DNA from: an uncultured virus (IMG/VR IMGVR_UViG_3300026198_000079)
Taxonomy: Duplodnaviria > Heunggongvirae > Uroviricota > Caudoviricetes
IMG/VR virus record: IMGVR_UViG_3300026198_000079
DNA: 64,000 nt
Reading direction: 5' to 3' (one strand)
The position numbers were made by a program, and so were the translations under genes. The notes beneath the pieces are model-generated. The model was not told the DNA's origin and did no database searches. It saw only the letters and a list, made by a program, of their open reading frames with translations. Positions 28,359 through 64,000 of the stretch are shown in pieces. Numbering within the stretch: position 1 is the first letter of the stretch; the number at the start of each line of letters is the position of its first letter.

Positions 28359-28457
28359 AGTCGTTACCGTCCTTTCTGAAGGACTTAGGTTACTTGTCCT
28401 TCTACCACCTTAAGACCGCCGAAGCGGTCAGAAGGCAGGGCATTTAACCTAAGTCCT

Positions 28458-29408: not shown

Positions 29409-29466
29409 GGTGTGTGCCTCCTTGAAATCCTTTGTTTTCCGAGGGTTTCGTTCCCTTCGGTGTGTC

Positions 29467-29562
29467 TATATATCACTCTGAAGCACACTTTTATCAAGTT
29501 ATTTCTCGCCATAATGTACACGAATATCCGCCCGTAAAACCGGCATGAATTGTGTAGATTAT
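29467..29562 (-). promoter_or_regulatory. Motif A copy 5 with inverted-repeat box
   Basis: CTTGATA...CAGAGTGATATATA; ATAATGTACACG...TTGTGTAGATTAT. Confidence 0.75.
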
Positions 29563-29867: not shown

Positions 29868-30093
29868 TCAAATCATCAACCTTCCTTACGATATCCTCGC
29901 CGTAGACCACGTTCAGTCCACTGCCGTTGTCCCACCGCATGAGGAGGGAGCCGGTATCGTCCACTCCGGTGACTGTTCCTTTCGTGCCGATTGGCGGAGC
30001 CTGGGCATCGTCCATCTGCACAAGTTCTACCCGGCAGCCGACAGGGTACTGTTTGCGGATACGATCCACAATCTCTTTACTCGGAAATCTCAT
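29857..30093 (-). CDS. DUF4314-like small SH3-fold protein
   Basis: YPVGCRVELVQMDD..PPIGTKGTV.GVDD. Confidence 0.8.
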   Translation of the reverse strand: MRFPSKEIVDRIRKQYPVGCRVELVQMDDAQAPPIGTKGTVTGVDDTGSLLMRWDNGSGLNVVYGEDIVRKVDDLSDQ

Positions 30094-30793: not shown

Positions 30794-30823
30794 GTGCGAA
30801 AACCTCCTTTGTTTTTGGTAGTA

Positions 30824-30918
30824 CATTAATCACTCTGAACCCCAGGAATATCAAGCGATTTCCGCACATTTCGGTGTAGAATAACTCACAACAAAAATTC
30901 CGGGAACTGTGCATAGTA
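30824..30918 (-). promoter_or_regulatory. Motif A copy 6
   Basis: CTTGATA...CAGAGTGATTAATG; degenerate CACAA...CTGTG box. Confidence 0.7.
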
Positions 30919-43178: not shown

Positions 43179-43223
43179 CTGATAGTCCTCCTTCCGTGAA
43201 TCGTAAGGAGCCATTGCCCCTTC

Positions 43224-43259
43224 AAGTCACAGTCAAAGAAAAAAGGCGGGATTTTAACC
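43224..43259 (-). promoter_or_regulatory. Motif B copy 2
   Basis: GGTTAAAATCC-N14-GACTGTGACTT. Confidence 0.7.
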
Positions 43260-43275
43260 CCGCCCGAAAAAACTA

Positions 43276-47832: not shown

Positions 47833-47868
47833 GTGTCACCTCGCTTTCTGTAAGGTCATCTGCCTTAC

Positions 47869-47904
47869 AAGTCACAGTCAAAGAAAATGGGCGGGATTTT
47901 AACC
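47869..47904 (-). promoter_or_regulatory. Motif B copy 3
   Basis: GGTTAAAATCC-N14-GACTGTGACTT. Confidence 0.7.
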
Positions 47905-47917
47905 CCGCCCGGAAAAA

Positions 47918-48466
47918 TCACATTTTTTCTTTCTGTTCCTCGATTCGCTCCATCGCTTTCTTCAGATGCTTGTTGATGTTCGGAATGCTTGTCCCCAGGA
48001 TATCCGCCGCCTCTGTCTGCGTGTGTCCCACGAGCTTTACCAGGCGGTACACCTCGCGCTGGATGTCGGTCAGGAACCACAGGATGCGGTCGAGCATTTC
48101 TTTTTCGGTCTCGTCCTCCGTTTCCATGTAGGTGCAGGTTTCCGAAAGGATGCGGCTCTTGTCCAACTTGTCCTCGTCGCCGTCATCGCCCGCCATGTAG
48201 TCGAAGGAAAGGTTCCAGTTTGCGGGGTACCGCTCTCCTGGATGCTCCGCCTCCCACTTCCTTTTCTCCGCTTTCTCTGCGTCTGTCATCGGAGGACGGC
48301 TATTTTTGATGTTGTTGTAAACCTCGGCATCGTCCAGGGAGTGCAGGACTTTGATGTCCGCCTCGGTCACGCCGTCTTCGCCGGGTCTGACGGTAACGCT
48401 GCTGCCGTCATTAAAGTTGAATGTGTAAGTGCCTCTCTTGTCCCATCTTGTCTTTTTGGTTTTCAT
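47918..48466 (-). CDS. Phage sigma-70/ECF-like sigma factor (region 4 HTH)
   Basis: LTDIQREVYRL...GHTQTEAADILGTSIPNINKHLKKA; LSFDY. Confidence 0.75.
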   Translation of the reverse strand: MKTKKTRWDKRGTYTFNFNDGSSVTVRPGEDGVTEADIKVLHSLDDAEVYNNIKNSRPPMTDAEKAEKRKWEAEHPGERYPANWNLSFDYMAGDDGDEDKLDKSRILSETCTYMETEDETEKEMLDRILWFLTDIQREVYRLVKLVGHTQTEAADILGTSIPNINKHLKKAMERIEEQKEKM

Positions 48467-48850
48467 TGATTGTCCTTTCCCCTGATTCTTGGGAAAGGGC
48501 ATCAGATACAGATAAAGGCCGGAGTGCCTGTGGAGCATCCCCGACCTTACTTGCCTGCAAAAGGGTATAAGGAAGAAAGGGTACTCCATATCGCACTTTC
48601 GCCGCCGCAGCAGCTTGTCCGATATATGTATCCTTTGCCCTTATACGTAATCAGGCATTGAAATATTTTGTTATGTAAAAGCGGTCGCCCGCCTTTTACC
48701 TTGTTTGTGTGGCTCCTATCAGGTAGCCTTGGGAGAAGGGTAAATCTGACGGTTTCCTTCTACTTCCTGCCGAAAAATTCAACCCCCTCACTATCCACTG
48801 GAGATGAACTGCCGGTTTGAGCGGACTCTTCTGAAAAATTCTTAGTCCTC

Positions 48851-48886
48851 AAGTCACAGTCAAAGAAAATCAGCGGATTTTTAACC
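48851..48886 (-). promoter_or_regulatory. Motif B copy 4 (upstream of the sigma gene)
   Basis: GGTTAAAAATCC-N13-GACTGTGACTT, 36-bp span. Confidence 0.7.
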
Positions 48887-49008
48887 TCCTGCGAAATTTT
48901 TCTGTTCACAGGTAGCGCACGAGAGATTGGAAACTGAAGTCCACGCACCGTGATTTTCTCAGTATTCCTGTTCATGATCTTGCTGCGTCCTTTTCGCAAA
49001 TAATTTAT

Positions 49009-49037
49009 TTGACATTTGAACTCATTTGTGGTATACT
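49009..49037 (+). promoter_or_regulatory. Sigma-A promoter for the ABC-3C operon
   Basis: TTGACA-17 bp-TATACT. Confidence 0.8.
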
Positions 49038-49178
49038 ATCTTTGGTGTCTTTTGACCCACCCACTGTCGTTTCAGAAGTCGTTTTCATTATAGAAAATGA
49101 GACCTCTCGATCTGGGGATGGTTTGGTGCATCGTGGTGCGTCGTGGTGCAAATCTTGGTAAAGGAGTGTCAGGCCAAC

Positions 49179-50312
49179 GTGGAATTTAAAACGCTGTTTC
49201 CTATCATGAAAAAGCATTTAGCCGATGGCGACGATGTTCCGTACTTCTTCCGCGAGCTTATGGCGATGATAACGACTGTGAACGAGGATGAGTGGGGAAC
49301 CGGGAAAGACCCGTCTGTTAAGCTGAGTGATGAGACGATCCGCAGTTACACAAAAAGAAAGCTGCCAAAGAAACTGGCAGGCTCCATCGTGTACAGGCTT
49401 ACGCCGGAGGTTATGGTCGAGCGGATCAACGAACACAGTGACACTTCCCGGAGCCTCCTTGCTGACGATTTGAAGGGTTATGACCCAACGCTTGATGCGG
49501 ATAATGTCGCAGACACCATTTCCGGCTGGATGGTTGAGATCGTCCAGGAGTCTGCCGGACTTGTTCCGCAGGACGCTTTGCAGAAACAGCAGCAACAACA
49601 GCTTGCATCAGACCTAAAAATCAGATATGGGGATTACCTTCTTGGAGAAACGGACGGTTACTGCCCGTTTCCCGGCTGCGGCAGACAACTGACCATCACC
49701 AATAGAGGCAAAGCGGTTCATACATACGAGGTAAGCCTGATAGACAAACAGAAACCCGCCACGCCGGATAACCTGATGGCGATGTGTCCGCAGTGCTACG
49801 CTACATATCTTCTGGATGACAGCAAGAAACTGTCCAAAGAACTGAAAGAGATAAAGAACATCCTGTCCACGCATAAGCAGAGCGTCCACTTGCTGGATGA
49901 CCTTCCGCTTGAAAAAGGCATCGTGGGCGTAATCAAGAAGGTCAAAAAGCTCGGAGAAAAAGAGCTTGTTGGAGCTTCCCTTGACCCGAAAGAGATCAAA
50001 CAGAAACTGAGTCCCACACAGGACATGGCGTTATACATAGCCGTGAACGGGTACGTCACGACCTACTATCCTCGGATCAGGGAAATCATGATGAACCTGG
50101 ATAAGCGCGGAGAAATCGACTACGATGAGATACAGGATCAGATCCACGCTTTTTATAAAAGACTGAAAAAGGCAAATAAGTCACGCCTGGAGATATTTAA
50201 CGAGATTGCGGGGAAGATACACCGCGTTACCCTGCAGGACGATATCTACTGCCAGATCGTTGTCTCCTATTTTGTTCAGAGCTGCGAGGTTTTCGATGCA
50301 ATTACCGAATAA
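49179..50312 (+). CDS. ABC-three-component (Lamassu-like) first component: helical N-domain + degenerate HNH + CTD
   Basis: CPFPGC...NLMAMCPQC; C-terminal IVVSYFVQSCEVF; AAGGAG RBS before GTG. Confidence 0.8.
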   Translation: MEFKTLFPIMKKHLADGDDVPYFFRELMAMITTVNEDEWGTGKDPSVKLSDETIRSYTKRKLPKKLAGSIVYRLTPEVMVERINEHSDTSRSLLADDLKGYDPTLDADNVADTISGWMVEIVQESAGLVPQDALQKQQQQQLASDLKIRYGDYLLGETDGYCPFPGCGRQLTITNRGKAVHTYEVSLIDKQKPATPDNLMAMCPQCYATYLLDDSKKLSKELKEIKNILSTHKQSVHLLDDLPLEKGIVGVIKKVKKLGEKELVGASLDPKEIKQKLSPTQDMALYIAVNGYVTTYYPRIREIMMNLDKRGEIDYDEIQDQIHAFYKRLKKANKSRLEIFNEIAGKIHRVTLQDDIYCQIVVSYFVQSCEVFDAITE

Positions 50313-50520
50313 ACTGTATTCATATAAAGCAAGCACCCTGGAACTGGTTCCCAAGGTGCTGACCGAACTGAAAAACGGTCCTAAAGAAGTGAAGGACTTA
50401 TTCCTTGTGATGAGACCGGCTCTGGCCGATGCTACGGACTTTTTGTCCGTCATGGACTGCCTGTATGCTCTCCGGGCGGTTGATATCAATGAAGATGGGG
50501 AGGTGTACTCATGCTTATAG
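50296..50520 (+). CDS. ABC-3C middle component
   Basis: 74 aa MQLPNKLYSY...MDCLYALRAV; overlaps both neighbours. Confidence 0.8.
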   Translation: MQLPNKLYSYKASTLELVPKVLTELKNGPKEVKDLFLVMRPALADATDFLSVMDCLYALRAVDINEDGEVYSCL

Positions 50521-50719
50521 AAATGACCTCACCTGCGTTTAAGGAAAAAGGAAAAGAACGGCCTCCAATCCGTTTCAAAGACGGATTGAACGTCGTTCTT
50601 GGAAAAGAGGATGGTGTTAATGATAATCTAAAACTACCCCATATTAATAATTGAAAAGTACCCCAGGATAAAATAGACTTTCCTATGTGTCTAAAAGATA
50701 TATAGGGGGTTCTGGGGAG

Positions 50720-52303
50720 ATGATCAGCCTGGAGGAGAAACAGCAAATAATATTACGTCATTATCATGATGGGGAGTCCCAGCGAAAAATACATAAGGAA
50801 ACAGGGATATCCAGAAAGACGATTAGAAAATATATCAAGAACTATGAACAAGCCAAGAGAGAACTTCTTGAAAATAATAGTGGCTGCCATAGCGAATTAG
50901 TGGCAGATATTATGGATAAGCCCCAATATGATACCAGTAATCGCAAGAAAACTAAATTAACCGAGGAATTGATGGCCCGGATAGAATTTTATGTAAAGGA
51001 GAACGAAGCCAAAAGAGCCGAAGGGAAAGCCAAGCAACAGAAGAAAAAAATAGATATATACGAGGAGTTGATTAATGAAGGTTTCAGTATTAGTTATCCA
51101 TCCGTATGTAATGCAGTAAGAGGGCTGTATCAAAAAAACAAGGAGGCATATATAAAACAAGAATACCAATTAGGCGACCAATGTGAATTTGATTGGGGTG
51201 ATGTTAAGCTAAAAATAGCCGGTAAAAACAGAGTCTTGCAAATGTCTGTCTTGGCCAGTGCCAAAGGTAATTATCGGTATGCCAAACTCTTTTACAATCA
51301 GAAAACAGAAAGCTTCTTAGAGGCTCATGCTCTGTTTTTTGAAAATATAAAAGGTGTTTACCACACCATGGTCTATGACAACATGAAAGTAGCGGTTAAG
51401 AGATTTGTCGGGCCAACCGAAAAGGAACCCACTGAAGCTCTACTAAAATTATCTTTGTATTACGGTTTCAAGTTTAGGTTTTGTAATACCTGTGCCGGGT
51501 GGGAAAAGGGCCATGTAGAAAAAAGTGTGGAATACGTAAGGAGGAAAGCCTTTAGTCGCAGAGATGAATTTGCTTCCCTGGAGGAAGCTCAAGAATATTT
51601 GGATAGTGTAGTAAATGCCCTAAATCAAAAAAACCAAGCGCATAAAGAAGGTAAAAGTGCCATGGAAATACTAAACGAAGAACGGCCATATTTGCTGCCG
51701 GCAATGCCTCAATATGATGCCGCGCGGATTCAGGAACCAAGAGCAGATAAATACTCCACCATTTGTGTGGATAACTGCCATTACTCTGTTCCCGATGTAT
51801 ATGTGGGTGAATTTATCTTTACTAAAGTATATACATCACAGATTCATTGTTACCATAACGGTGAGAAAATAGCCCAGCATGAAAGAAAATACGGGCACAA
51901 CGAATGGAGCATAAAGATAGAACACTATTTAAGAACGCTCAAAAAAAAGCCTGGTGCCCTTGCAAGGAGTACTGCCCTCCAGCAAGCTCAACCAGAGCTG
52001 CAAAAAATATACCAAAGCTATTATACCGGAAAGGAGAAGGAATTTATACAGCTACTTGAACTTATCGGAGAAAAAGGCTTATTAGCTGTAACTAATGCTA
52101 TAACTCTGCTGCAAAGAGTTAGTCCTATAGACATAAGCACTGAGAAGATAACTGCTATTTGCAACCGCAGCACTGCAACTGAGCCCAATAAATCAGTAAA
52201 AATAATAACTGATATAGAAACAAAGTCCAGAGACATCCTAAAATCCTATGGTTTGCTGTTAATATCTGCCGGAGAAGAATTTAAGGAGGTATCGATAGCA
52301 TGA
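50720..52303 (+). CDS. istA: IS21 transposase
   Basis: N-terminal HTH, EFDWG, YDNMK, EKGHVE DDE motifs. Confidence 0.95.
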   Translation: MISLEEKQQIILRHYHDGESQRKIHKETGISRKTIRKYIKNYEQAKRELLENNSGCHSELVADIMDKPQYDTSNRKKTKLTEELMARIEFYVKENEAKRAEGKAKQQKKKIDIYEELINEGFSISYPSVCNAVRGLYQKNKEAYIKQEYQLGDQCEFDWGDVKLKIAGKNRVLQMSVLASAKGNYRYAKLFYNQKTESFLEAHALFFENIKGVYHTMVYDNMKVAVKRFVGPTEKEPTEALLKLSLYYGFKFRFCNTCAGWEKGHVEKSVEYVRRKAFSRRDEFASLEEAQEYLDSVVNALNQKNQAHKEGKSAMEILNEERPYLLPAMPQYDAARIQEPRADKYSTICVDNCHYSVPDVYVGEFIFTKVYTSQIHCYHNGEKIAQHERKYGHNEWSIKIEHYLRTLKKKPGALARSTALQQAQPELQKIYQSYYTGKEKEFIQLLELIGEKGLLAVTNAITLLQRVSPIDISTEKITAICNRSTATEPNKSVKIITDIETKSRDILKSYGLLLISAGEEFKEVSIA

Positions 52304-53067
52304 CCACAAAGAAGGAAATGTCCAGGTTGATAATAGAGTATTGTAAAGCCCTTAGATTGCCTTCTATTAGGCGCTTGTTTGAAGCAGAAATTGCCGAAGC
52401 TAGACTGCGTGATATTTCTTATGAAGAGTTCTTATTTAATCTTCTTCAAAAAGAGAATGATCTAAGATATGAAAATGGCAGAAAGAACCGGATTAGAATA
52501 GCCAACTTCCCTTGTAAAAAATATCTGGAAGACCTGGTTGTGGAATATTTGCCCGAAGATGCCCGCAAAAAATTGAAAACCTTAAGCTCATTAGAATTTA
52601 TTAAGACTGGTCAAAACGTGATACTGGCAGGTAACCCAGGTACGGGAAAGTCCCATATTGCCATAGGCTTAGGCATTAAAGCCTGCATGGAAGGTTACAA
52701 AGTTCTTTTTACAACCGTTCCTCTACTGATAAATCAGTTAAAAGAGAGCCGTTCGGCCAAGACTTTGAGGGCTTATGAAAACAAGTTCGAGAAATATGAT
52801 CTGGTTATCGCGGATGAATTAGGATACATATCTTTTGACAAGGAGGGATCGGAACTTTTATTTACCAATCTATCATTACGAGCTGGCAGAAAATCAACCA
52901 TAATCACTACCAACCTTTCTTTTGAAAGATGGGAAGAAATATTTATGGATCCGGTCATGACCGCTGCTATGATTGACCGGCTTACACATAAGTCCTATAT
53001 GATTAATATGAATGGTAATTCCTATAGATTGAAGGAGACTCAAGATTGGCTCAAAAATCAAAAGTAA
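52300..53067 (+). CDS. istB: IS21 helper ATPase
   Basis: GNPGTGKS, ADELGY, TTNL, DRLTH, SYR. Confidence 0.95.
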   Translation: MTTKKEMSRLIIEYCKALRLPSIRRLFEAEIAEARLRDISYEEFLFNLLQKENDLRYENGRKNRIRIANFPCKKYLEDLVVEYLPEDARKKLKTLSSLEFIKTGQNVILAGNPGTGKSHIAIGLGIKACMEGYKVLFTTVPLLINQLKESRSAKTLRAYENKFEKYDLVIADELGYISFDKEGSELLFTNLSLRAGRKSTIITTNLSFERWEEIFMDPVMTAAMIDRLTHKSYMINMNGNSYRLKETQDWLKNQK

Positions 53068-54676
53068 TTTTTTTAGCTTAATGTGGGATACTTTTCGTTT
53101 ATTATCTGGGGGATTTTTCGGTTGACAAAAACAGATGGCGAGAACTCCATCGGCAAGTCCTCCGCCATGCTTGCTATTGATTTTGTATTCGGCGGCAACA
53201 CCTATCTTGCCAGCGATGGTGTAAAGCATATCGGCGACCATACGATTTTCTTCACCTTTGCTTTTGACGGAAAGCCGTACTACTTTGCCCGCAACACTGC
53301 GTCCCCTGATGACATCCATGTGTGTTCCGAGGGATACCAGCTGACCGGGGATGTCTGGACAAAGCAGGAATTTGCCAACTGGCTCAAAGAAAAATATCAT
53401 ATCGACTTCTCCGGGCTTTCGTTCCGTGAGACCATGAGCAGTTTCTTCCGCATCTACGGCAAAGAAAATACGGACGAGCGCCGTCCGCTCAAAGGGCTCC
53501 CCGGCGAGAGCATGCAGAAGTCCATCGACATACTTGTGAAGCTGTTTGACCGCTACAAGGACGTGGAGGTATTTAACGGCCGCCTTGAGGAACAGAAGAA
53601 AAAACTGGCGGCATACCGCGAGGCTCGGAAATACCGCTTTGTTCCCGACTTGGTTGGCGGCAAGACGCAGTACGACGAAAATGTTGCGCAGATTCGCAGC
53701 CTGCAGGTAGAACTCGACAATCTGACCGCAGAGCAGGTGGAAGATCAAAAAGGTATAGATATAGAAAAAAGCCGCATCAAGTCTCAGCTGCAGGCAAGCA
53801 AACTGCGCCTTGAGACTGAAATGCAGTCCAAGCAGCGCAGGCTGAACCTGCTGAACATGAGCCTTGAATACGGCTTATACCCAACGGAAGCGGATCTGTC
53901 CGCCTTACAGGAGTTTTTCCCGGAGGTGAACATCCGCAAACTATATGAAGTTGAAAAGTATCACCAGAAACTGGCGGCTATCCTTGACGAGCAGTTTTCT
54001 GCCGAACGTCAGTCTGTTGAGGGAGAAATCGCCGATCTGCAGGAACAGATAAAGGCATTGCAGACGCAAATCAGCGAACTCGGTTTTGTCGGAAACCTCT
54101 CCAAGGAGTTTCTGGACAAGCACTCCGAGATCAAAGGTCGCATCGACGCATTGAAAGCACAGAATGAGGCTTACCTTACGTTGACCGACCTGCAGGATGC
54201 CCGCAAGAAGGCAGATGAAATGCTGAAACGCGCTATCGAGGATATCCTTGCGGACATTGAGCGTTCCATCAACGACAAGATGAAGGAATTCAACGACTCC
54301 CTCTTCACGGAGTCGCGCAAAGCTCCTCATCTGCACTTTAACGAATACAACAGCTACAGATTTGAAACGCCGGACGATACGGGAACAGGATCCAATTACA
54401 AGGGTATGGTGGTTTACGACCTCGCCGTTCTGTATCTTACGGCACTCCCGGCTATCGCGCACGACTCCCTTATTCTGAAGAATATCGGTGACGGAGCGGT
54501 TGACGGCATTATGAAAATATACGCGCAGAGCAGAAAGCAGGTGTTTATAGCGTTCGATAAGCAGGCGGCTTATATGCCGGATACTCAGAAAATATTAGCT
54601 GACAACACCGTATTGAAACTGTCTGATGGTAACTGTGAACTTTATGGTGAGTCATGGAATAAAGAGGTATCTCAAA

Positions 54677-54886
54677 ATGAAGATGAGTTATAAGAAACTG
54701 TGGAAGCTACTGATTGACAAAGATATGAAGAAGACGGATTTGCGAAAAGCGGCGGGCATCAGTTCATCTTCTCTTGCGAAACTCGGCAAGGATGAGAATG
54801 TCACTACGGATGTACTGCTTCGCATCTGCAAAGCACTCGACTGTGAGCTTGATGACATCGTGGAGATTGAACGAACAGAGGAATAG
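54677..54886 (+). CDS. Cro/C1-type HTH regulator
   Basis: SYKKLWKLLIDKDM...ICKALDCELDDI. Confidence 0.88.
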   Translation: MKMSYKKLWKLLIDKDMKKTDLRKAAGISSSSLAKLGKDENVTTDVLLRICKALDCELDDIVEIERTEE

Positions 54887-55021
54887 GCGGAGAGACCGAT
54901 TATATTCTGACCATACTGCTTTGGTGTTCAGTGGATATCTGTCGCAGTCGAGGTTGAGGATAAAGAATAATATTATCGAATAATAACCGCTAACGACCAT
55001 TCATTAAGATGAAGGGATGAA

Positions 55022-55370
55022 CTGAACGACCCTCGCCTAAAGGCGAGGGGTTCACTTAAGCGACTGAAAGTCGCCCACCAGCTAAAGCAGGTATATAGTG
55101 GTTACTCTTCATCAATCGTGAAATTATCTACAGGGTGTTCTTCATTGTGATGTTTTATATAATGCTTTATTGTTTCTTCATCGACCGCACCAACTGTTGC
55201 GCAAAAATATCCTCGTGCCCACATATGCTGTCCCCAGTAGCGTTTTTTCAATTCCGGGAACTCGCTTTGTAAATCGTGTGATGTTTTCCCTTTTAGCTTC
55301 TGCATTATATAGCTTGGTGATAGATTGGGCGGACATGATAGTATCAAGTGTATATGATCTTTTCCTATGA
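55022..55370 (-). pseudogene. tnpA: IS200/IS605 TnpA (Y1) remnant, 5'-truncated, with end hairpins
   Basis: KDHIHL HUH motif, KLKGKTS, MWARGYF, YI; hairpin CCCTCGCCTAAAGGCGAGGG. Confidence 0.8.
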
Positions 55371-55494
55371 GAAGGTTTCCGCCATATTCCCTGACTCTCC
55401 CTATTTCTTTCCGAGATACGATGGCAACGGGCCATATACCAAGCTGTGGACAGAGGAAATGTTCTGGAAATGCTTTGAAATGGTCGGAGTGTAA
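55366..55494 (+). pseudogene. Possible internal fragment of a tyrosine recombinase
   Basis: YEKVSAIFPDSPYFFPRYDGNGPYTKLWTEEMFWKCFEMVGV; resembles the segment before the HxLRH box. Confidence 0.4.
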
Positions 55495-55763
55495 TTATAG
55501 GATCTGACGTAACCCAGTAATACCAATGGTTTGCAGACCGTCAACAAGAGATTTTATCCAACAAACAGAAAATGAAAGGGACACCGCTCAATTTTTCTTG
55601 GGTAGCGTCCCTTTTTTTATAAATGAAAGCAAGCACCGCCCGAGGGGACTATGGGCGGTACTTCTATATAAAACCCAACACCGAAAGGAGGAGTTCATCT
55701 CCACCGTTGCCAGCCATTTTCAGGCTGGCTTTTTTCATACCACGACAAGGAGGTATTTAGTGA

Positions 55764-57149
55764 ATGGCAGAAGATAAGAAACAGTCGCCCGTCCCGGAGG
55801 CGCATACCACGCCCGAGGCCCCGGCTCCTAAAACGCCGGGCGGCCCCGCCGTGGAGGAACAGGCCACGATCCCCGGCATGGAGAGCGGCCCCGCTCCCTC
55901 TGGTAAGGTGATCGACCTGTCCGATGTGCGGGCCGCTGGTGCGGACAAGGCCAAGGCCGCCGAGCCTGATAAAGTGGAGCCGCCCGCCTCGAAAGCAGAC
56001 AAACAGCCCGACAAGCCCGCGCCCGCCGCTGATGCCAGGGCTGGTAAGGAAATGCCCAAACAGGCCCGCCCGCCTAAAGCGGATAAAGCCCCGTCAGCCG
56101 ATAAGGGGGCCAAGAAAGCGGAGCAGGCTGACAAGCCCCGCCGTGGCCGTCCTCCCAAGGATCAGGCTACCCCGGAGAAAAAGGGTAAGGCGGCCCCGGC
56201 CAAGGCTCCCGCAGAAGCGGCAAAAGCCGATCCCCCGGCCCCGGAGGTTCCTCCCGCTCCCCGCGACGCTACCCGCGCCGTCAAGGAGGAAATCGTATAT
56301 ATTAACCTTTCCGAGCTGCATCCGTTCAAGGAACATCCCTTTGGTGTCCGGGACGATGCGGAAATGCAGGGCCTTGTGGAGTCCGTCCGTTCTGGCGGTG
56401 TGCACCAGCCTGCGCTGGTGCGTCCTCTCGAAGATGGCGGCTATGAGATTATTGCGGGCCACCGCCGCCAGCGGGCCAGCGAATTGGCCGGATTTATGAA
56501 TATGCCCTGTATCGTCCGCAACATGACGGACGATGAAGCCATCCTCGCTATGACGGATGACAACCTCCGCCACCGCGAAACGATTTTGCCCAGCGAAAAG
56601 GCCCTTGCCCTGAAAAAGCAGTATGAGGCGATCAAGCATCAGGGATCGCGTGGGGATGATGCGGCGGCGGGTAAGCTCTCGCTGGAAAGCGTGGGCCAGC
56701 GCAACGGCATGAGCGTGAAAACCGTTCAGCGGTATATTTGGCTCAATGACCTTGTTCCCGAGTTGAAGCAGACCATGGATGCGGGAAAGCTGTCCTTTAC
56801 CCCCGCCGTGGAAATCTCCCGCATCCGTCCCACCCACCAGAAGTATATCGCCGTTTCCATTGAGGGCCAGCAGTCCTCGCCCTCCAAGGGACAGGCAAAC
56901 AGGCTCCGGGAGCTGGATAAGGACAACAAGCTGACCCCGGATGTCATTGATGGCATTTTGAGTGAAGAAAAGAAAAAGGAGGATCGTGACGTGATTATTA
57001 CCGGCTCTGAATTGGAAAAGTTCTTCGGCAAGGAGGCCACGCCCCGCCAGATGAAGGATCAGATCATGACCCTGCTGGCCGACTGGAAAGAGAAGCAGCC
57101 GCCCGAGCTTGCCAAGCCCGACAAGAAAAAAACGGATAAGGAGAAGTAA
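55764..57149 (+). CDS. parB: ParB/RepB/Spo0J protein with long Pro/Ala/Lys-rich N-tail
   Basis: LHPFKEHPF, YEIIAGHRR, DDNLRHRE, HTH; AT-hook PRRGRPPK. Confidence 0.88.
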   Translation: MAEDKKQSPVPEAHTTPEAPAPKTPGGPAVEEQATIPGMESGPAPSGKVIDLSDVRAAGADKAKAAEPDKVEPPASKADKQPDKPAPAADARAGKEMPKQARPPKADKAPSADKGAKKAEQADKPRRGRPPKDQATPEKKGKAAPAKAPAEAAKADPPAPEVPPAPRDATRAVKEEIVYINLSELHPFKEHPFGVRDDAEMQGLVESVRSGGVHQPALVRPLEDGGYEIIAGHRRQRASELAGFMNMPCIVRNMTDDEAILAMTDDNLRHRETILPSEKALALKKQYEAIKHQGSRGDDAAAGKLSLESVGQRNGMSVKTVQRYIWLNDLVPELKQTMDAGKLSFTPAVEISRIRPTHQKYIAVSIEGQQSSPSKGQANRLRELDKDNKLTPDVIDGILSEEKKKEDRDVIITGSELEKFFGKEATPRQMKDQIMTLLADWKEKQPPELAKPDKKKTDKEK

Positions 57150-57152
57150 GCA

Positions 57153-57175
57153 CCTCTGGCCATCGTGACCAGAGG
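57153..57175. repeat. Palindrome TCTGGYCAYSGTGRCCAGA, copy 1 of 5 (others at 58611, 61063, 62385, 63688)
   Basis: Direct reading. Confidence 0.85.
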
Positions 57176-57194
57176 TTTTTTCGTCCCCCAAAAC

Positions 57195-57301
57195 GGGGTG
57201 CCCCATGAAGTCGCAGACTTCATGGGGAGAGGAGGCGCAACGGAGCGTGTGGATTTTGGGCGCTTGCGCCCAAAGGAACAAAGCGAAGTTTGTACCGACG
57301 A
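57195..57301 (+). repeat. ~105-nt structured element, ICE copy 1
   Basis: CCCCATGAAGTC/GACTTCATGGGG hairpin, AGAGGA, TTTGGGCG/CGCCCAAA hairpin, GACGA. Confidence 0.8.
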
Positions 57302-57311
57302 AGGCTCCTGT

Positions 57312-57452
57312 GGTATATATCCCCCGTCGCCGCCCATCACCGGGCGCAGCCGGGAGCTGGCCGTCAAGGGGGCGTAGCCCCGCCAAGGGCGGCTTGCCCT
57401 TTACGGTCTGCCCCGGCTGTGCCATATTCAGCGGCGCGGCGGGGGTATATCC
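57312..57452 (+). promoter_or_regulatory. Frpo-like single-stranded-DNA promoter hairpin
   Basis: Long inverted repeat carrying TTTACG-17-CATATT in its 3' arm. Confidence 0.6.
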
Positions 57453-57547
57453 TCCAGAGCCGCCCCCTTTTCCAAGACTGGAAAAGGGCGGGGGAAAAAG
57501 GTTGAACCGTCCCCTGTAAAACTAACTTTGAAATGGAGGTATTCCTT

Positions 57548-57889
57548 ATGAAAAGGCCCCTTGCCTATATCACCGCCGCATGGTGCGGCGATCCCCATGA
57601 AATGACCGAACAGGCGGCCAAGTATTGCCGAGCCGTCTATGACGCGGGCTTTTCCCCGATTTGCCCCACGCTCTATCTGCCCCTGTTCCTCAACGATGCG
57701 GTTCCCGAGGAACACAAAAGCGGCATCGATATGGGCCGCAATCTGCTCCGCCGTTCTCATGTGCTGGTGGTGTGCGGTCATACCGTCACCGAGTCCATGA
57801 AGAATGACATTGCCGTGGCCCAGCGGCTGGGTATCACTTCGACCACGCTGGAGGGCATCCTGACCGTCAAGCGTCAGGGCCACCGCTGA
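57548..57889 (+). CDS. DUF4406/nucleoside deoxyribosyltransferase-like protein
   Basis: LAYITAAW, SPICP, RSHVLVVCG, MKNDI. Confidence 0.7.
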   Translation: MKRPLAYITAAWCGDPHEMTEQAAKYCRAVYDAGFSPICPTLYLPLFLNDAVPEEHKSGIDMGRNLLRRSHVLVVCGHTVTESMKNDIAVAQRLGITSTTLEGILTVKRQGHR

Positions 57890-58605
57890 TGTCAGCCCTG
57901 ATTGAAGCCTATGTTACCAACCTCGGGAAATACGCCGAGTATGGCGTGGAGGCTGGAGAAACCCTAAAGTTTCCCGCCACCACCGAGGAGGTACAGGCAC
58001 TTTTGAAGCGGATCGGCGTGGATGGTGTGCGGTATGAAGAAATCTTCATTACCGCGTTTGACGGCGATGTGCTGGGCATCTGCGACTGTTTGGGTGAGTA
58101 CGAAAGCATTGACGAACTGAACTATTTGGCCCATCTGCTCTCCGAGTTGGACACCTCTGAGCTTGAAAAGTTCGAGGCCGTCATTGACAGCGGCGAGTAC
58201 ACAGGGAGCGTCAAAGACTTAATCAACCTGACGCAAAATCTGGATTGCTTTGAGTTTTACCCCGATATTGACGATGACGAGGCGCTGGGGCGAATGTACG
58301 TCCAGGACTTCGGCTCCATTCAGATCCCAGAGCATCTCATTGACTATATCGACTATGAGGCATACGGGCGGGATATGCGGATCAACGAGGACGGCCACTA
58401 CGCCCCCGGCGGCTATGTGTTCAATAACAACAGCAGTTTTATTGAGCACTACTCCGGCAGGGATGACATTCCTCCGGAGCACCGCATTTTCGCCTATCCC
58501 AAACTGAATATCCGGGAGCAAATGGCAGCCTATCAGGAAATCATTGACCGCTCCGCGCTGAACGAGGACAAGCAGCGGCTCCCCATCAGCCGAGAGGACA
58601 GATAG
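57889..58605 (+). CDS. ardA: Antirestriction protein ArdA
   Basis: YVTNLGKY, EEIFI, EYESIDELN, YIDYEAYGRD; highly acidic. Confidence 0.9.
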   Translation: MSALIEAYVTNLGKYAEYGVEAGETLKFPATTEEVQALLKRIGVDGVRYEEIFITAFDGDVLGICDCLGEYESIDELNYLAHLLSELDTSELEKFEAVIDSGEYTGSVKDLINLTQNLDCFEFYPDIDDDEALGRMYVQDFGSIQIPEHLIDYIDYEAYGRDMRINEDGHYAPGGYVFNNNSSFIEHYSGRDDIPPEHRIFAYPKLNIREQMAAYQEIIDRSALNEDKQRLPISREDR

Positions 58606-58641
58606 CGCCGCCTCTGGTCACGGTGGCCAGAGGCGGCAAAT

Positions 58642-58749
58642 GGGGTTCCCCGCAAAGTCGCAGATTTTGTGGGGAGAGGAGCCACAACGTAGTGTGCGGA
58701 TTTTGGCCGCCTGCGGCCAAAGGAGCAAAGCGCAGTTTGTGGCGACGAG
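58642..58749 (+). repeat. ~105-nt structured element, ICE copy 2
   Basis: Same layout; ends at the pcfB RBS. Confidence 0.8.
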
Positions 58750-58763
58750 AGGAGGTGGTTTAG

Positions 58764-59237
58764 ATCGTAGGTGACGAAGTTTCCCGTCAGACCATTGCCG
58801 TCAGCGTTCAGGCATCCAAGCTGACGGCCCGGAGCCTTGCCTATGCGCTGGCCGCCGTGGGCCGCCAGATTGCCAAGGAGCACCGCAAGGCCCAAGCTCC
58901 CCACGGCAAGCAGAGCGTAAAAAAGCTCATGGGCCACGGCGGGTCCACAAGCAGTATCGAACTGTCCGGGGCTACCCGGCACTTTGACCGGGTGGCCCGG
59001 AAGTGGGGGGTTGACTATGCCTTTCGCCGGGTGGACAAGGGCAAATATCTGTTACTGTTCAAGGCAAATCAGGCCGACGCCATCACGGGCTGTTTTGCTG
59101 AGTATTCCCGCAAGGAACTGAACCGGGCCAAGTCCTGGCGCACCCCGATCCGTGAACAACTCAACCGGGCCGAGGAACAGGCGCGGAAACAGCCCCAGCG
59201 GGAGCTGGAAAAGGAGGCGGTGCATGGGGACAGATAA
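58764..59237 (+). CDS. PcfB/DUF3801 family protein (probable ATC start)
   Basis: GKQSVKKL, FDRVARKWGVDYA, LLLFKANQAD; AGGAGGT RBS before ATC. Confidence 0.8.
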   Translation: MVGDEVSRQTIAVSVQASKLTARSLAYALAAVGRQIAKEHRKAQAPHGKQSVKKLMGHGGSTSSIELSGATRHFDRVARKWGVDYAFRRVDKGKYLLLFKANQADAITGCFAEYSRKELNRAKSWRTPIREQLNRAEEQARKQPQRELEKEAVHGDR

Positions 59238-61062
59238 GCTCCGCAAATATGTACTTCCCAATATCCCGTATCTGTTCATCGGCTGGGCCTACCTGAAAGT
59301 GGGGACGGCCTACCGTCTGGCCGCTGGTGCGGGCTTCGGCCAAAAACTGTTGGGGATCATGCAGACCATCGGCGTGGCCTTTGCGGATTTTGCACCGGGC
59401 CTGAACCCGGCAGACTGGCTGGTGGGTATCGTGGGGGCCGTGGGCTTTCGGCTCCTGATCTACTGCAAGGCGAAAAAGGCCAAGAAGTTCCGCCACGATG
59501 CGGAGTACGGCACAGCCCGCTGGGGGACGGAAAAGGACATCAAGCCCTTTATTGATCCCAAGTTTGAAAATAATATCATTCTGACCGCCACGGAGCGGCT
59601 GACTATGAACACTCGCCCGGCCAACCCCGCAAACGCCCGAAATCTGAACACCTGCATTATCGGGTCGAGCGGATCTGGAAAAACCCGCTTCTGGCTTACT
59701 CCCCAGCTACTGTCCGCTCATTCCTCCTACGTCTGCGTAGATCCCAAGGGCGGCGTCCTCTCCCAAGTGGGCTATTTCCTGCAAAAGAAGCGGGGGTACA
59801 AAATCAAGGTGTTCAACAGCATCGACTTTTCCAAGTCCATGCACTATAACCCGCTGGCGTACATCAAAAACGAGGCCGACATTTTGAAGTTCGTGGACAC
59901 CCTGATCGCCAACACCAAGGGCGAGGGCAAGGAGGGTGATCCATTTTGGACGAAAGCAGAAACGCTTTTATACTGCGCTCTCATTGCCTACATCATTTTT
60001 GAAGGCCCCGCCGAGGATCGGAATATGAACACGCTGGTTGATATGATCTCCGGGATGGATGTCAAAGAGGACGATGAAAACTACAAAAACGCCGTGGACT
60101 ATATGTTCGATGGTCTTGCCAAGCGCAAGCCGGATTGTTTCGCCGTCAAGCAGTACCGCAAGTACAAATTAAGCAGCGGCAAAACGGCCAAGTCGATCCT
60201 GATAAGCTGCGGCGCACGTCTGGCCCCCTTTGACATCCCCCAGCTCCGGGAGATTATGAGCTATGACGAGCTGGAGCTTGACCGCATGGGCGATAAACGG
60301 ACGGCAACCTTTTTCGTGATCTCCGACACCACGCAGACCTATAACTTCATCGTTGCGCTGGCCTTTTCGCAGATGTTCAATCTTCTTTGTGAACGTGCCG
60401 ACAACGTACACGGCGGGCGTTTGCCCCATCATGTGCGGGTGCTTTGGGATGAGGCCGCCAATACGGGACAAGTCCCACAACTGGAGAAGTTAGTAGCCGT
60501 CATCCGCTCACGCGAGATCAGTCTGGCGCTTCTGTATCAGGCGCAGTCCCAATGCAAGGCCATTTACAAGGACAATGCCGAAACGATCTTCGGCAATATG
60601 GACACCATGATTTTCCTTGGTGGCCGGGAAAGTACCACCATCAAGGAGATTTCCGAAAACTGGCTGGGCAAGGCCACGATCTCCATGCAGACCGAGGGCC
60701 GCTCCCGAGGGCAGTCGGAAAGTTTCAGCCAGAACACCCAGCGGCTGGGCCGGGAGCTGATGACCCCCAGCGAATTGGCTACCATGCCCGGAGATCGGTG
60801 CATTTTACAGCTTCGGGGCCTGCCGCCGTTCTACTCCAAGAAATACGATTTGAAACAGCACCCCAACTACAAGTACACCGCCGAGGCTGACAAGCGCAAC
60901 GCCTTTGACCTGCAAAGTCTTGTCACCCGGCGCATGGACAAGCTCAACCCCAATGAGCAATACACCGTTTACGAGGTGGCCGTACCAGACGAGGCGCACA
61001 TGGAAGAGGACGAGGACATCCTCAACTATGACGACCTCGACGACCCGGACACCTTTGTATAA
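59224..61062 (+). CDS. virD4: Type IV coupling protein VirD4/TraG
   Basis: YGTARWG, GSSGSGKT, DPKG, DPFW, LWDEAAN. Confidence 0.95.
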   Translation: MGTDKLRKYVLPNIPYLFIGWAYLKVGTAYRLAAGAGFGQKLLGIMQTIGVAFADFAPGLNPADWLVGIVGAVGFRLLIYCKAKKAKKFRHDAEYGTARWGTEKDIKPFIDPKFENNIILTATERLTMNTRPANPANARNLNTCIIGSSGSGKTRFWLTPQLLSAHSSYVCVDPKGGVLSQVGYFLQKKRGYKIKVFNSIDFSKSMHYNPLAYIKNEADILKFVDTLIANTKGEGKEGDPFWTKAETLLYCALIAYIIFEGPAEDRNMNTLVDMISGMDVKEDDENYKNAVDYMFDGLAKRKPDCFAVKQYRKYKLSSGKTAKSILISCGARLAPFDIPQLREIMSYDELELDRMGDKRTATFFVISDTTQTYNFIVALAFSQMFNLLCERADNVHGGRLPHHVRVLWDEAANTGQVPQLEKLVAVIRSREISLALLYQAQSQCKAIYKDNAETIFGNMDTMIFLGGRESTTIKEISENWLGKATISMQTEGRSRGQSESFSQNTQRLGRELMTPSELATMPGDRCILQLRGLPPFYSKKYDLKQHPNYKYTAEADKRNAFDLQSLVTRRMDKLNPNEQYTVYEVAVPDEAHMEEDEDILNYDDLDDPDTFV

Positions 61063-61119
61063 CCTCTGGTCATGGTGGCCAGAGGATGACGCGCCGCCCT
61101 TATGGGCGGCTATTATTAT

Positions 61120-61224
61120 GGGTTCCCGCAAAATCAAAGATTTTGTGGGAAGAGGAGCCGCAACGGAATGAGTGATTTTTCGCGCTTGCGCGGAAATGAA
61201 CGATATGAAGTTTGCGGCGACGAG
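61120..61224 (+). repeat. ~105-nt structured element, ICE copy 3
   Basis: Same layout with different stem sequences. Confidence 0.8.
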
Positions 61225-61258
61225 GCCGGGGTATGGCCCCGGAGAAATGGAGGCATAT

Positions 61259-61471
61259 ATGGCTTTTTTCACTTCCGCTGTTACTACCTTGCAGACCCTC
61301 GTTGTGGCTCTGGGCGCTGGCCTTGCTGTGTGGGGCGTAGTCAATCTGCTGGAGGGCTACGGCTCCGATAACGCAGCGGCCAAGAGCCAGGGCATCAAGC
61401 AGCTCATGGCGGGTGGCGGCATCATCGTGCTGGGTACTACCCTGATCCCCCTGCTGTCTACCCTGTTTTAA
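61259..61471 (+). CDS. Maff2 family membrane protein
   Basis: MAFF start, NLLEGYGSDN..KSQGIKQLMAGGG. Confidence 0.9.
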   Translation: MAFFTSAVTTLQTLVVALGAGLAVWGVVNLLEGYGSDNAAAKSQGIKQLMAGGGIIVLGTTLIPLLSTLF

Positions 61472-61483
61472 GGGCAGCGGCCT

Positions 61484-62350
61484 ATGGGTATTCTCACCGA
61501 ATGGATCACGGAATGGCTCAAAGAGCTGTTGATCTCGGGGATCATGGACAACCTCGAGGGGCTGTTTGACACGGTGAATACCCGGGTCGGGGAAATATCC
61601 GTACAGGTGGGAACGACCCCGGCGGCATGGAACGCCGGGGTTTTCTCCCTGATACGGCAGCTTTCCGAAACGGTCATTTTGCCGATTGCCGGACTGATCC
61701 TAACCTTTGTCGCAACCTATGAGCTGATCCAGATGATCCTGGAAAAGAACAATATGCACGAGTTCGACGTGGCGAATATCTACAAGTGGGTATTCAAAAC
61801 GACTTGTGCCATCCTCATTCTCTCCAACACCTTTAATATTGTCATGGCGGTTTTTGACGTTTCCCAAAGCGTGATCGCAAGCTCGGCGGGAATTATCGGC
61901 GGCAGTACCGATGTCACCCCGGATATGCTGGACACGCTGGAGGCCAGTCTGGAGGCGATGGAACTTGGCCCTCTGCTGGGGCTGTTCCTGCAATCCTTTG
62001 TCATTAAGCTGACCATGTTTGCCCTGAATATATTTATTTTCGTGATCGTGTATGGCCGTATGGTGGAGATCTATCTGCTGACCAGTCTGGCCCCGATCCC
62101 CGTGGCCACCCTCACCAACCGGGAGGCCGGACAGATGGGCCAGAATTATCTCCGCTCCCTGTTTGCCGTGGGCTTTCAAGGTATGCTGATCCTTGTATGC
62201 GTGGCCATCTATGCGGTGCTCGTTCAGGGCATTGCCACAGGCGGTGATCCTATCGGGGCCATTTGGGGCTGTATCGGCTATACCGTCCTGCTGTGCTTTA
62301 TCCTGATGAAAACCGGAACAATCGCAAAAAGCGTATTCAACGCCCATTGA
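61484..62350 (+). CDS. VirB6/TrbL-like conjugal membrane protein
   Basis: Multiple transmembrane segments, YGRMVEIY...APIP, GQNY, GFQG. Confidence 0.85.
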   Translation: MGILTEWITEWLKELLISGIMDNLEGLFDTVNTRVGEISVQVGTTPAAWNAGVFSLIRQLSETVILPIAGLILTFVATYELIQMILEKNNMHEFDVANIYKWVFKTTCAILILSNTFNIVMAVFDVSQSVIASSAGIIGGSTDVTPDMLDTLEASLEAMELGPLLGLFLQSFVIKLTMFALNIFIFVIVYGRMVEIYLLTSLAPIPVATLTNREAGQMGQNYLRSLFAVGFQGMLILVCVAIYAVLVQGIATGGDPIGAIWGCIGYTVLLCFILMKTGTIAKSVFNAH

Positions 62351-62367
62351 GAAAGGACAGGTGATCC

Positions 62368-63153
62368 ATGCAAGACAACTTCACTTCTGGTCACGGTGGC
62401 CAGAACATTACCCCGGAGGGCCTGTACCTGATGGATGGGATCGAGGGACTGCGCTCCTTGCCCCGTCATTCTGTGGATATGCTTTTGACCGATCCGCCCT
62501 ACGGCACGACCCGGAATTATTGGGATGTTCCCTTGCCCCTGCCGGAGCTGTGGGAGGCGGTGCGCTGGGCGGTGAAGCCCGAGGGCGCGGTGCTTCTGTT
62601 TGCCCAATGTCCCTATGACAAGGTGCTGGGCGCGTCCAACCTCCCCATGCTCCGCTATGAGTGGGTGTGGTACAAGAGCCGATGCACCGGGTTTCTCAAC
62701 GCCCGCCGCGCTCCGCTGAAAAAGACGGAGAACATTCTGGTGTTCTATCAGAAGTCCCCGGCTTACTACCCACAATTTGAGCAGGGAGAGCCGTACAAGA
62801 AAATCCACCCCCGCAGCGGTCACAGTCCCAATTATGGAGCCTTTGAACGTATCAGCGGCGAGTCGGACGGGCGGCGGTTCCCCGGCAATGTGCTGGCGTT
62901 CCCCACGGTGGCGAATACCGTTCATCCCACGCAGAAGCCCGTGGAGCTGTGCGAATATCTCATTAAAACCTACACCCGCGAGGGACAGGTGGTAGCGGAT
63001 ATTTGTGCCGGGAGCGGCACAACGGCCATCGCCGCTCTGAACACGGGCCGTCGCTTTATCGGTTTTGAGAACGCCCCGGCCTTTTACGGCCCGGCGGCTG
63101 AACGTATCCAGCGGGCGCGGGAGGCCGTTGCCCGCGGCGAGAAAGGAGTGTAA
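62368..63153 (+). CDS. N6/N4 DNA methyltransferase (beta class)
   Basis: TDPPYG, HPTQKP, DICAGSGTT. Confidence 0.92.
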   Translation: MQDNFTSGHGGQNITPEGLYLMDGIEGLRSLPRHSVDMLLTDPPYGTTRNYWDVPLPLPELWEAVRWAVKPEGAVLLFAQCPYDKVLGASNLPMLRYEWVWYKSRCTGFLNARRAPLKKTENILVFYQKSPAYYPQFEQGEPYKKIHPRSGHSPNYGAFERISGESDGRRFPGNVLAFPTVANTVHPTQKPVELCEYLIKTYTREGQVVADICAGSGTTAIAALNTGRRFIGFENAPAFYGPAAERIQRAREAVARGEKGV

Positions 63154-63155
63154 TC

Positions 63156-63743
63156 ATCGGAAGATATTCTATCATCTACGCCGATCCCCCTTGGCGGTAT
63201 TCCCAAAAGGGCTTGCAGGGGGCGGCGGAGCACCATTACCCCACAATGGGGATTGACGATCTGTGCGCGTTACCCGTGGCCGAGCTTGCGGCCCCGGACA
63301 GCGCACTCTTTTTATGGGCTACGTTCCCCCAGCTCCCGGAGGCCCTGCGGCTGATCCGCGAGTGGGGCTTCACCTACAAGAGCGTCGCTTTCGTCTGGCT
63401 GAAGAAAAACCGCAAAGCGGATAGCTGGTTTTACGGGCTGGGCTTTTGGACGAGGGGCAATGCCGAGGTCTGCCTGCTGGCAACCAAGGGCCACCCCAAA
63501 CGTCAGGCGGCAAACGTCCACCAGTTCATTATTTCCCCCATCGAGGCCCACAGCAAAAAGCCCGACGAAGCCCGCGACAAGATCGTGGCCCTCATGGGTG
63601 ATCTGCCCCGTGTGGAGCTGTTCGCAAGGCAGACCCCGCCCGGATGGGACGTATGGGGCAACGAGGTGGAGTCCACGGTTCCCGGCTTCTGGTCACGGTG
63701 GCCAGAGGATGGCGGAAAGGAGGACGAGTCATGCCGTATGTGA
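63156..63743 (+). CDS. MT-A70 family adenine methyltransferase (probable ATC start)
   Basis: IIYADPPW lies upstream of the ORF-track start; LFLWAT, HSKKP, ELFAR. Confidence 0.88.
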   Translation: MGRYSIIYADPPWRYSQKGLQGAAEHHYPTMGIDDLCALPVAELAAPDSALFLWATFPQLPEALRLIREWGFTYKSVAFVWLKKNRKADSWFYGLGFWTRGNAEVCLLATKGHPKRQAANVHQFIISPIEAHSKKPDEARDKIVALMGDLPRVELFARQTPPGWDVWGNEVESTVPGFWSRWPEDGGKEDESCRM

Positions 63744-64000
63744 ACGTCCCTAACGATCTGTCCAAGATCAAGACGAAAATCGCCTTTAACCTCACCAAGC
63801 GCCAGTTGATCTGTTTCGGCGGCGCGGCGGTGGTGGGCATCCCTGTGTATCTGCTGACCCGCAGCACACTTGGAAATACCGGGTCGATGTTCCTGATGAT
63901 CGCGCTCATGCTCCCGGCCTTTTTCATGGCGATGTATGAGCGGGACGGCCTGCCTTTTGAAAAGGTGGTGCGGAACATCCTCCGGGCCAAGTTCACCCGC
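63731..64000 (+). CDS. PrgI family protein (runs off window)
   Basis: MPYVNVPNDLSKIKTKIAFNLTKRQLICFG. Confidence 0.88.
   Translation, partial: MPYVNVPNDLSKIKTKIAFNLTKRQLICFGGAAVVGIPVYLLTRSTLGNTGSMFLMIALMLPAFFMAMYERDGLPFEKVVRNILRAKFTR

Follow-up and report, generated by a model that had tools for sequence, protein, structure and literature searches.

What is the role of an operon that lies beside the early genes of a prophage and is read away from them? We address this question for a stretch of 64,000 nucleotides (nt) from an uncultured virus of the Caudoviricetes (IMG/VR record IMGVR_UViG_3300026198_000079), which is referred to as the window over its full length. The operon (window 48987-54886) had been described in an earlier note as an ABC-3C/Lamassu-like unit that occupies the immunity locus, with a defence sensor possibly repurposed as the lysis-lysogeny switch (hereafter the original prediction). 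We conclude that it is probably an accessory ABC-3C (Lamassu) defence cassette, located in the variable cargo slot of the prophage and inactivated here. The locus itself would then be ordinary, inactivated prophage cargo, and the idea of a Lamassu-based lysogeny switch falls away. What is notable concerns the family as a whole: an apparently dead nuclease scaffold in the effector, a fourth gene of the helix-turn-helix (HTH) type after the ATPase, and a repeat array in the leader with a lineage-specific core.

Gene content and inactivation of the cassette

ABC-3C systems, for which Krishnan et al. 2020 is said to be the founding paper, combine an effector, a small middle component and an ATPase. 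Window 48987-54886 is a predicted self-contained four-gene cassette of this (Lamassu) family, in which adjacent genes overlap by 10-17 nt (Table 1). The effector ends in a CTD11 domain (Pfam, E=7.7e-38; residues 252-384 of the 389-aa open reading frame (ORF), profile 6-138 of 138), which is also found in 120/120 effector homologues among the matches listed (494 at E<=0.001). PADLOC LmuA matches the same protein with E=6.8e-12, limited to its N-terminal part, and phrog_6948 spans it with E=8e-136. Because the homologues and the PHROG profile are 372-377 amino acids (aa) long, the GTG at 49179 is the probable true start of the effector. The MC7 gene overlaps both of its neighbours, including the effector stop. 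For the ABC ATPase we find matches to Pfam DUF2326 (E=2.5e-15), PADLOC LmuB (E=4.4e-12) and phrog_5467 (E=1.5e-161); it keeps Walker A, and in 16/16 homologues the Walker B motif is AHDS, with the catalytic Glu missing. The PHROG matches of effector, MC7 and ATPase (phrog_6948, phrog_6259 and phrog_5467) all run end to end. The best PHROG of the HTH_26 gene is a repressor family.

The locus thus holds what an ABC-3C system is recognised by: a catalogued C-terminal domain (CTD) on the effector, a small middle component, and an ABC/SMC-like ATPase with helical insert and head. The matches to CTD11, MC7, DUF2326/LmuB and HTH_26, together with the gene order, confirm the operon type given in the original prediction, and its last gene is indeed a small Cro/C1 HTH gene. 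The GC content of the cassette (0.41-0.48) is below that of the phage backbone, both here and in most related loci.

The cassette resembles type II Lamassu (LmuA-LmuC-LmuB, such as DdmABC of Vibrio cholerae and LmuACB of Salmonella enterica) in the order of effector, small middle component and SMC-like ABC ATPase, in an effector composed of a head and a C-terminal docking domain, and in the weak PADLOC matches to LmuA and LmuB. The Walker B motif without catalytic Glu is a further likeness: LmuB is probably hydrolysis-deficient according to PMC10586767. The cassette differs in its head (a putatively dead HNH with a helical domain instead of Cap4, Sir2 or a protease), in its short ATPase (552 aa) of the DUF2326 type, and in possessing HTH_26 as a fourth gene and an array of repeats in its leader. 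Its middle component is MC7 against MC3 for V. cholerae LmuC, and its CTD11 stands against CTD12 (type I, Bacillus cellulasensis) and CTD7 (type II, V. cholerae) in solved LmuA, as given in bioRxiv 10.1101/2025.06.23.660979. The full-length matches also connect it to the ABC-3C entries of Pfam and PHROG (CTD11 PF20277, MC7 PF20292, PHROGs 6948, 6259 and 5467), which are entries without a function.

In the window strain the cassette is most likely knocked out by an IS21-family insertion sequence (IS), which cuts the ATPase gene after codon 34, within the codons for Walker A; that this gene is broken, as had been stated before, holds. The insertion shows the features of the IS21 family: genes for IstA (NF033546, E=4.8e-57) and IstB (NF038214, E=3.8e-75; both NCBIfam), ends that begin with TGTT, a 5-bp target duplication GATGG (50610-50614 and 53134-53138), and an empty site in the nearest genome (G001). 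This genome has the identical locus without the IS and with one GATGG, and its uninterrupted ATPase gene encodes 552 aa with Walker A GENSIGKS. Contigs of 4/4 RNA-library runs furthermore show the IS-free joint (50609>53134). Given the empty site in G001 and the IS-free joint in all four runs, the insertion is recent and strain-specific. It is also present in G002, an IMG/VR viral contig that spans the sigma gene through the cassette.

Table 1. Positions of the cassette, its parts and its nearest neighbours in the window.
Feature	Position	Strand	Remarks
Sigma-70 region-4-like gene, first of the long - strand operon	47918..48589	-	Pfam Sigma70_r4_2 E=2.4e-7; PHROG sigma factor families
Left border of the cassette	48987..49008	+	conserved GTCCTTTTCGCAAA-like box just upstream of the -35 (14-locus alignment)
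Operon promoter	49009..49037	+	TTGACA, 17 nt, TATACT, extended -10 TG; kept across 14 loci
Leader direct-repeat array	49124..49150	+	TGGTGCA / TGGTGCG / TGGTGCA, 10-nt spacing
Effector gene	49179..50312	+	377 aa from GTG 49179; ORF as listed 49143-50312 (389 aa)
Effector layout (377-aa form)			all-alpha N-domain 1-~140; Zn-Cys4 HNH-like ~145-240; CTD11 from ~240
Middle component MC7	50296..50520	+	74 aa; Pfam MC7 E=1.4e-22; phrog_6259 E=1.8e-27
ABC ATPase, 5' piece	50511..50614	+	34 codons, ending with the Walker A glycine; runs on directly at 53139 in G001
IS21-family insertion	50615..53133	+	IstA 50687-52303, IstB 52300-53067
ABC ATPase, 3' piece	53134..54693	+	Walker A GENSIGKS, coiled-coil middle, DUF2326 head with Walker B ...AHDS
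HTH_26 (Cro/C1-type) small regulator	54677..54886	+	69 aa; Pfam HTH_26 E=6e-20; overlaps the ATPase stop; right cassette border
End zone of DNA common to other strains/samples	55081..55179		probable right prophage end

Exchange of the cassette in the slot beside the early operon

Three samplings (relatives chosen by the sigma-like gene, relatives chosen by DUF2800, and the module in locus L001) agree, and therefore the cassette is taken as swappable cargo and not as an immunity module. The closest backbones among the sigma-chosen relatives (L022-L024) are 88-90% identical in the sigma-like gene, 95-96% in DUF2800 and 94-96% in PolA. They are without the operon, the HTH_26 gene and the leader repeats; the L023 locus begins 93 nt upstream of the sigma-like gene, so that its slot is outside view. 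The slot is filled by HamA (Hachiman) and a helicase in L022 and by other genes in L024, and backbone homology to these two cassette-less loci stops at 48762-48784. Other sigma-chosen relatives have McrBC-like, DndB, type I restriction-modification (RM), PLD-helicase, CTD6/MC2 ABC-3C or HTH/ImmA-like genes in the same place.

Similar contents are observed in the DUF2800-chosen sample, which comprised 80 loci from viral contigs (56 with at least 4 kb upstream, 34 of these non-redundant). The cassette is found in 5/56 of these relatives (3/34 of the non-redundant ones). The remaining loci contain type I/III RM, AAA_5+LlaJI, AAA_13+HTH_17, McrBC-like, Thoeris, NACHT or CTD6/MC2 genes, and in some loci lysis genes are located directly upstream. 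Many of the alternative cargoes are without any HTH. The third sampling places the cassette in a different environment: in L001 homology to the window covers 48987-54885, between host genes and an Eco29kI RM pair. Homology to L061 begins at window 48983. In these alignments the cassette is a discrete unit, with sharp borders (48983-48987 and 54885) in other contexts.

In DUF2800-SSB-PolA phages this slot, which is bounded by the prophage end and the early operon, is a defence hotspot. In P2/P4-type prophages and satellites one fixed slot harbours varied defence systems. The present slot is similar in being near the prophage end and in holding different defence systems in similar phages, and it differs in that the carriers are DUF2800-SSB-PolA siphoviruses of Clostridia with serine recombinases, and in that one cassette type recurs across deep divergence. 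For a large group of phages of gut Clostridia it is thereby well defined as a hotspot, and it offers a practical place to mine new systems.

Can the operon nonetheless be the immunity module of the prophage, acting as a RecA-independent lysis-lysogeny or superinfection switch? The original prediction correctly stated that it is the only divergent unit, with the sigma gene facing away (the gene calls in 783-48589 are all on the - strand but for one weak 73-aa + call), and that no CI with a peptidase domain is encoded: no Peptidase_S24 or CI-like match was found with Pfam in 55 window proteins (ORFs of the cassette and of the neighbouring conjugative element (ICE) included) or with PHROGs in 25, a few ORFs below 80 aa being left out. 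A switch would also agree with the synteny in the effector-found sample of 80 viral loci, in 70 of which the cassette is divergent from the same early module (7/80 are co-oriented with it and 2/80 show no early gene), and with the HTH_26 gene, which has a repressor family as best PHROG, and is the best conserved of the four cassette genes (55-87% identity). The HTH_26 gene follows the ATPase in 50/54 assessable viral loci as well as in genome loci. However, a CI/Cro module would be conserved together with close backbones, whereas this cassette is absent from L022-L024 and from 51/56 DUF2800 relatives, where unrelated defence genes, many without an HTH, hold the slot. It is also found away from phage genes, beside host genes (L001), and the prophage persists with a broken ATPase gene in the window strain and in G002. 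Normal lysogeny of relatives lacking the operon was named in the original prediction as an outcome that would speak against a switch, and as far as sequence can show such relatives do lysogenise.

The operon and the lambda-type CI/Cro region are both divergent units beside an early lytic operon and encode a small Cro/C1-type HTH protein, but here the unit is not kept among close relatives, its HTH gene comes at the end of a 4-kb defence operon, a peptidase or ImmA partner is missing, and no shared operators between face-to-face promoters were found. The candidate operator region contains one strong + promoter and the leader array, and the promoter scan revealed no consensus - strand promoter between 48590 and 49010. 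The switch appears to be already largely refuted by the comparative data, and we assign it a very small probability.

It might also be argued that the cassette belongs to the adjoining conjugative element or to the host chromosome and merely abuts the prophage. The ICE (ParB, ArdA, VirD4, TrbL) starts at 55764, the att sites could not be defined, and the GC content of the cassette is unlike that of the phage. Nevertheless, the cassette lies within a block that is 99-100% identical to G001 and runs from ~2152 to 55179, with different flanks on both sides, whereas the ICE beyond is only 69-77% identical to G001. Contigs of the RNA runs X15 and X16 leave the window sequence at 55081 and 55132. 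Given these departures and the end of the shared block at 55179, the cassette is placed inside the mobile unit, at its right end. Viral contigs position it by the same early genes in the 70/80 loci mentioned above, and host genes begin ~50-200 nt beyond the HTH gene in L003, L004 and L009 (in L003 and L004 a 5'-truncated response-regulator gene ~180 nt after it, past a 62-aa ORF). An origin from the ICE or the host is therefore considered highly improbable, and we retain the accessory cargo of the prophage as our explanation.

Some further observations were made on the slot and its surroundings. The slots in L022-L046 and L137-L216 also hold large proteins without a Pfam hit (for instance 633 aa in L024 and 639 aa in L158). 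Defence genes are often located downstream of HTH_26 (L001, L018, L019, L006-L008, L010, L015) and include a C5-methylase with Eco29kI, a DruA-like 1198-aa protein with a 497-aa protein, type III RM-like genes and DUF6079. L029 has a second HTH_26 copy beside an HsdM gene. In seven viral loci (L087-L093, L097) the cassette is downstream of and co-oriented with DUF2800-SSB-PolA, a second arrangement seen in one phage subgroup.

Effector fold, leader repeats and the output of the cassette

The region ~145-240 of the effector model folds as an HNH: structure comparison yields Z 8.7 for Cap5 (root-mean-square deviation (rmsd) 3.2, 91 aligned residues) and Z 7.4 for EcoKMcrA, and McrA and Cap5 are the top Foldseek matches for this core (prob ~1, at an E of only ~0.1). 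With the HNH of CBASS Cap5 and of EcoKMcrA/ScoMcrA it shares the beta-beta-alpha-metal fold, the Cys4 zinc site and the conserved Asn, but it lacks the general-base His and the last His. In the profile alignment to EcoKMcrA, Y183-E184 takes the place of the HH, and the Y of CPQCY that of the last H. All 32 close effector sequences have the four Cys and the Asn, which are also kept in 24 distant homologues, whereas both His positions are variable across these two sets: the general-base position is E, D, K, C, N, T, S or V, and the last-His position is Y, F, A or others, with a nearby His in 1/25 sequences (L085). An HNH scaffold that keeps the zinc cysteines without the histidines had been proposed before and is thereby supported. 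We predict that this HNH is catalytically dead in every member examined. Since the His positions vary while Cys4 and Asn are kept across homologues, the loss of catalysis would be a family trait and not decay. Alignment of the effector profile with the window's own HNH gene (hhalign) gave nothing meaningful.

The model of the N-domain (1-~140) is all-alpha and confident (pLDDT 85). The DNA binding suggested earlier for this domain is not confirmed, and no solved fold matched convincingly (best VIA, Z 5.5 at rmsd 6.5; Foldseek E >1). F3 is the only invariant residue and there are no invariant polar catalytic residues. A look-up of the N-domain in a protein atlas returned nothing usable. An HTH within this domain was considered and is not supported by the all-alpha model, the fold searches and the single invariant residue. 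An enzymatic active site, as expected in the head of a Lamassu effector, is thus not found: the HNH fold is without its His and the N-domain without a catalytic signature, so that the effector is expected to bind rather than to cut.

As a defence cassette, the operon would be carried between the early operon and the right prophage end and transcribed from its own sigma-70 promoter, independent of the lytic genes, and its most likely function would be protection of the lysogen from other phages or from plasmids. If it works as the solved Lamassu complexes do, the effector would be held by its CTD11 in a complex of MC7 and a dimeric SMC-like ATPase, would be set free by foreign DNA structures, and would then oligomerise. 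Such a sequester-and-release mechanism is described for Lamassu in bioRxiv 10.1101/2025.03.14.643221 and PMC10586767, and the former reports that Lamassu effectors form tetramers upon release. The released effector would then act by binding, and could block DNA transactions or recruit another factor, while regulation of the operon is ascribed to the HTH_26 gene and the leader repeat array. A non-nucleolytic output, if this holds, would mean that abortive infection is not the only use of Lamassu-type sensors.

Several points weigh against this explanation. The effector is without a recognisable enzymatic domain, and at the sequence level the cassette is only weakly connected to tested Lamassu (PADLOC E ~1e-12). 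With the intact ATPase as query, a sequence search of solved structures returned no relevant match, and sequence comparison detects no solved Lamassu chain. Our literature search found no paper on CTD11, MC7 or DUF2326 systems, and defence by this subtype is putative. The divergent position beside the same early module is kept down to 26% effector identity, and this apparent tie to one position in one phage lineage is stronger than expected for a freely roaming defence island. The contigs of the RNA libraries span cassette and lytic genes alike, which allows no expression ranking and does not show expression in the lysogen. Finally, decay of the cassette is frequent: L001, L009 and L019 have a frameshift in the effector gene, the operon of L005 is truncated behind MC7, and L008 has a 42-residue deletion in the N-domain.

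Upstream of the effector gene, the promoter has 11/12 matches to the sigma-70 consensus plus the TG and is the best promoter-like site of the region. It is separated from the effector gene by a leader of ~135 nt, and the repeat array is located directly before the ribosome-binding site (49160-49166) and the GTG start. The array is previously unreported. Arrays of 3-4 units with at least 5/7 invariant positions are present in 66/70 non-identical upstream regions of homologues, and begin at a distance of 41-78 nt from the effector start (41-65 with a single exception). Among 1400 shuffles, 19 reached 5 invariant positions and none reached 6. The repeat core varies by lineage (TGGTACA, TGGTTCA, TGGGACA, TTCCTCA, TAGGAAA, ACGCGCCA and others), whereas the units within an array are alike. 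Neither the window nor any locus examined has a second cluster of its array motif. A conserved RNA structure of the leader is not supported, because RNAalifold predicted no more than 4 pairs from 11 leaders, with no compensatory change among them; an Rfam search of 48500-55800 at E<=1 also yielded no match.

These repeats bring up the reading of the cassette as a sensor-coupled regulator, in which the released non-cutting effector (or MC7) binds the leader array and the output is transcriptional instead of DNA destruction. We consider it unlikely, although parts of it fit well: the family-wide dead HNH retains its Zn site and Asn, the 3-4 direct repeats are spaced at about one helical turn just upstream of the ribosome-binding site, their core differs between lineages while being alike within each array, and a tetramer of the released effector, as reported for Lamassu in bioRxiv 10.1101/2025.03.14.643221, would suit 3-4 tandem sites. 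On the other hand, with the array as sole cluster of its motif per locus, a binder would be confined to its own operon. The mutual-information signal between effector columns and core type (35 sequences) is confounded with shared ancestry, beyond which no column follows the core. L017 and L020, the closest pair with different arrays, are 96% identical with an unchanged HNH module, and conversely the core TGGTACA goes with effectors that are 40% (L088) and 66% (L010) identical to that of the window. Moreover, slippage can homogenise arrays without any reader; given that units have been gained or lost (three against four in L006 and L008), it contributes to the likeness within arrays. In a broader form, a widespread Lamassu relative carried by phages may have swapped its killing enzyme for a non-cutting, DNA-reading head, of which the released oligomer binds the repeats or other DNA with a transcriptional or blocking output in place of cell suicide; this, too, we regard as doubtful. 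If true, an SMC-type sensor would be wired to gene control, and a prophage could tune its own cargo during superinfection or induction. Overall, a defence cassette is preferred.

Two candidate features of the regulation were rejected. HTH_26 was considered as the reader of the repeats, since in 14 loci the middle base of the core seemed to vary with its recognition helix, but a larger set broke this pattern: the helix LAKLG pairs with TGGTACA, TGGTTCA and TGGTGCA, while a 76%-identical HTH pairs with TTCCTCA. An inverted repeat around the -35 (GTCC-N22-32-GGAC) is found in only 15/70 regions and is a feature of one subclade, not a general one.

Further observations on the prophage and its neighbours

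The region 783-48589 is a complete siphovirus prophage with the order serine recombinases, lysis, tail, head, terminase, methylases, SNF2, VapE, PolA, Enc34-type SSB, DUF2800 and sigma-like gene. The latter is a neighbour of the cassette and lies outside of it. Related loci have a divergent gene of 128-229 aa at the same position, with a region-4 match in 8/13 scanned.

At the left end, the leftmost serine recombinase gene (783-2171, -) lacks ~36 residues from the start of the resolvase domain, among them the region of the catalytic Ser. Within this gene (near 2119-2178) the identity to G001 (locus L056) falls from 100% to ~65%, in register. It appears that the prophage entered recombinase genes of two different elements, in both cases at the same codon. 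A search of 48500-56000 did not reveal the missing 5' part. At the other end of the shared block, 55102-55347 contains a 5'-truncated remnant of an IS200-type tnpA, and in G001 a fragment of a PHP-domain gene is fused there. The ICE part of the window (55764-64000) additionally holds DUF7768, DUF3801 and two methylases; a DUF7768 gene is present in both the phage (42406-42870) and the ICE (57533-57889).

The early region holds three copies of a 55-nt element (43218-43272, 47863-47917 and 48845-48899; 73-91% alike). On the - strand of the phage this element consists of a GC hairpin with a T-run followed by TTGACTGTGACTTGA, and each copy is located upstream of a gene start. It may serve as a terminator/promoter or antitermination unit of the early operon. 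Finally, 27885-35060 contains an amidoligase pair, a GGACT-like cyclotransferase, a SAM-synthetase-like fragment, a C5 methylase and a ParB-fused N6/N4 methylase, which together may form a DNA-modification or anti-restriction block.

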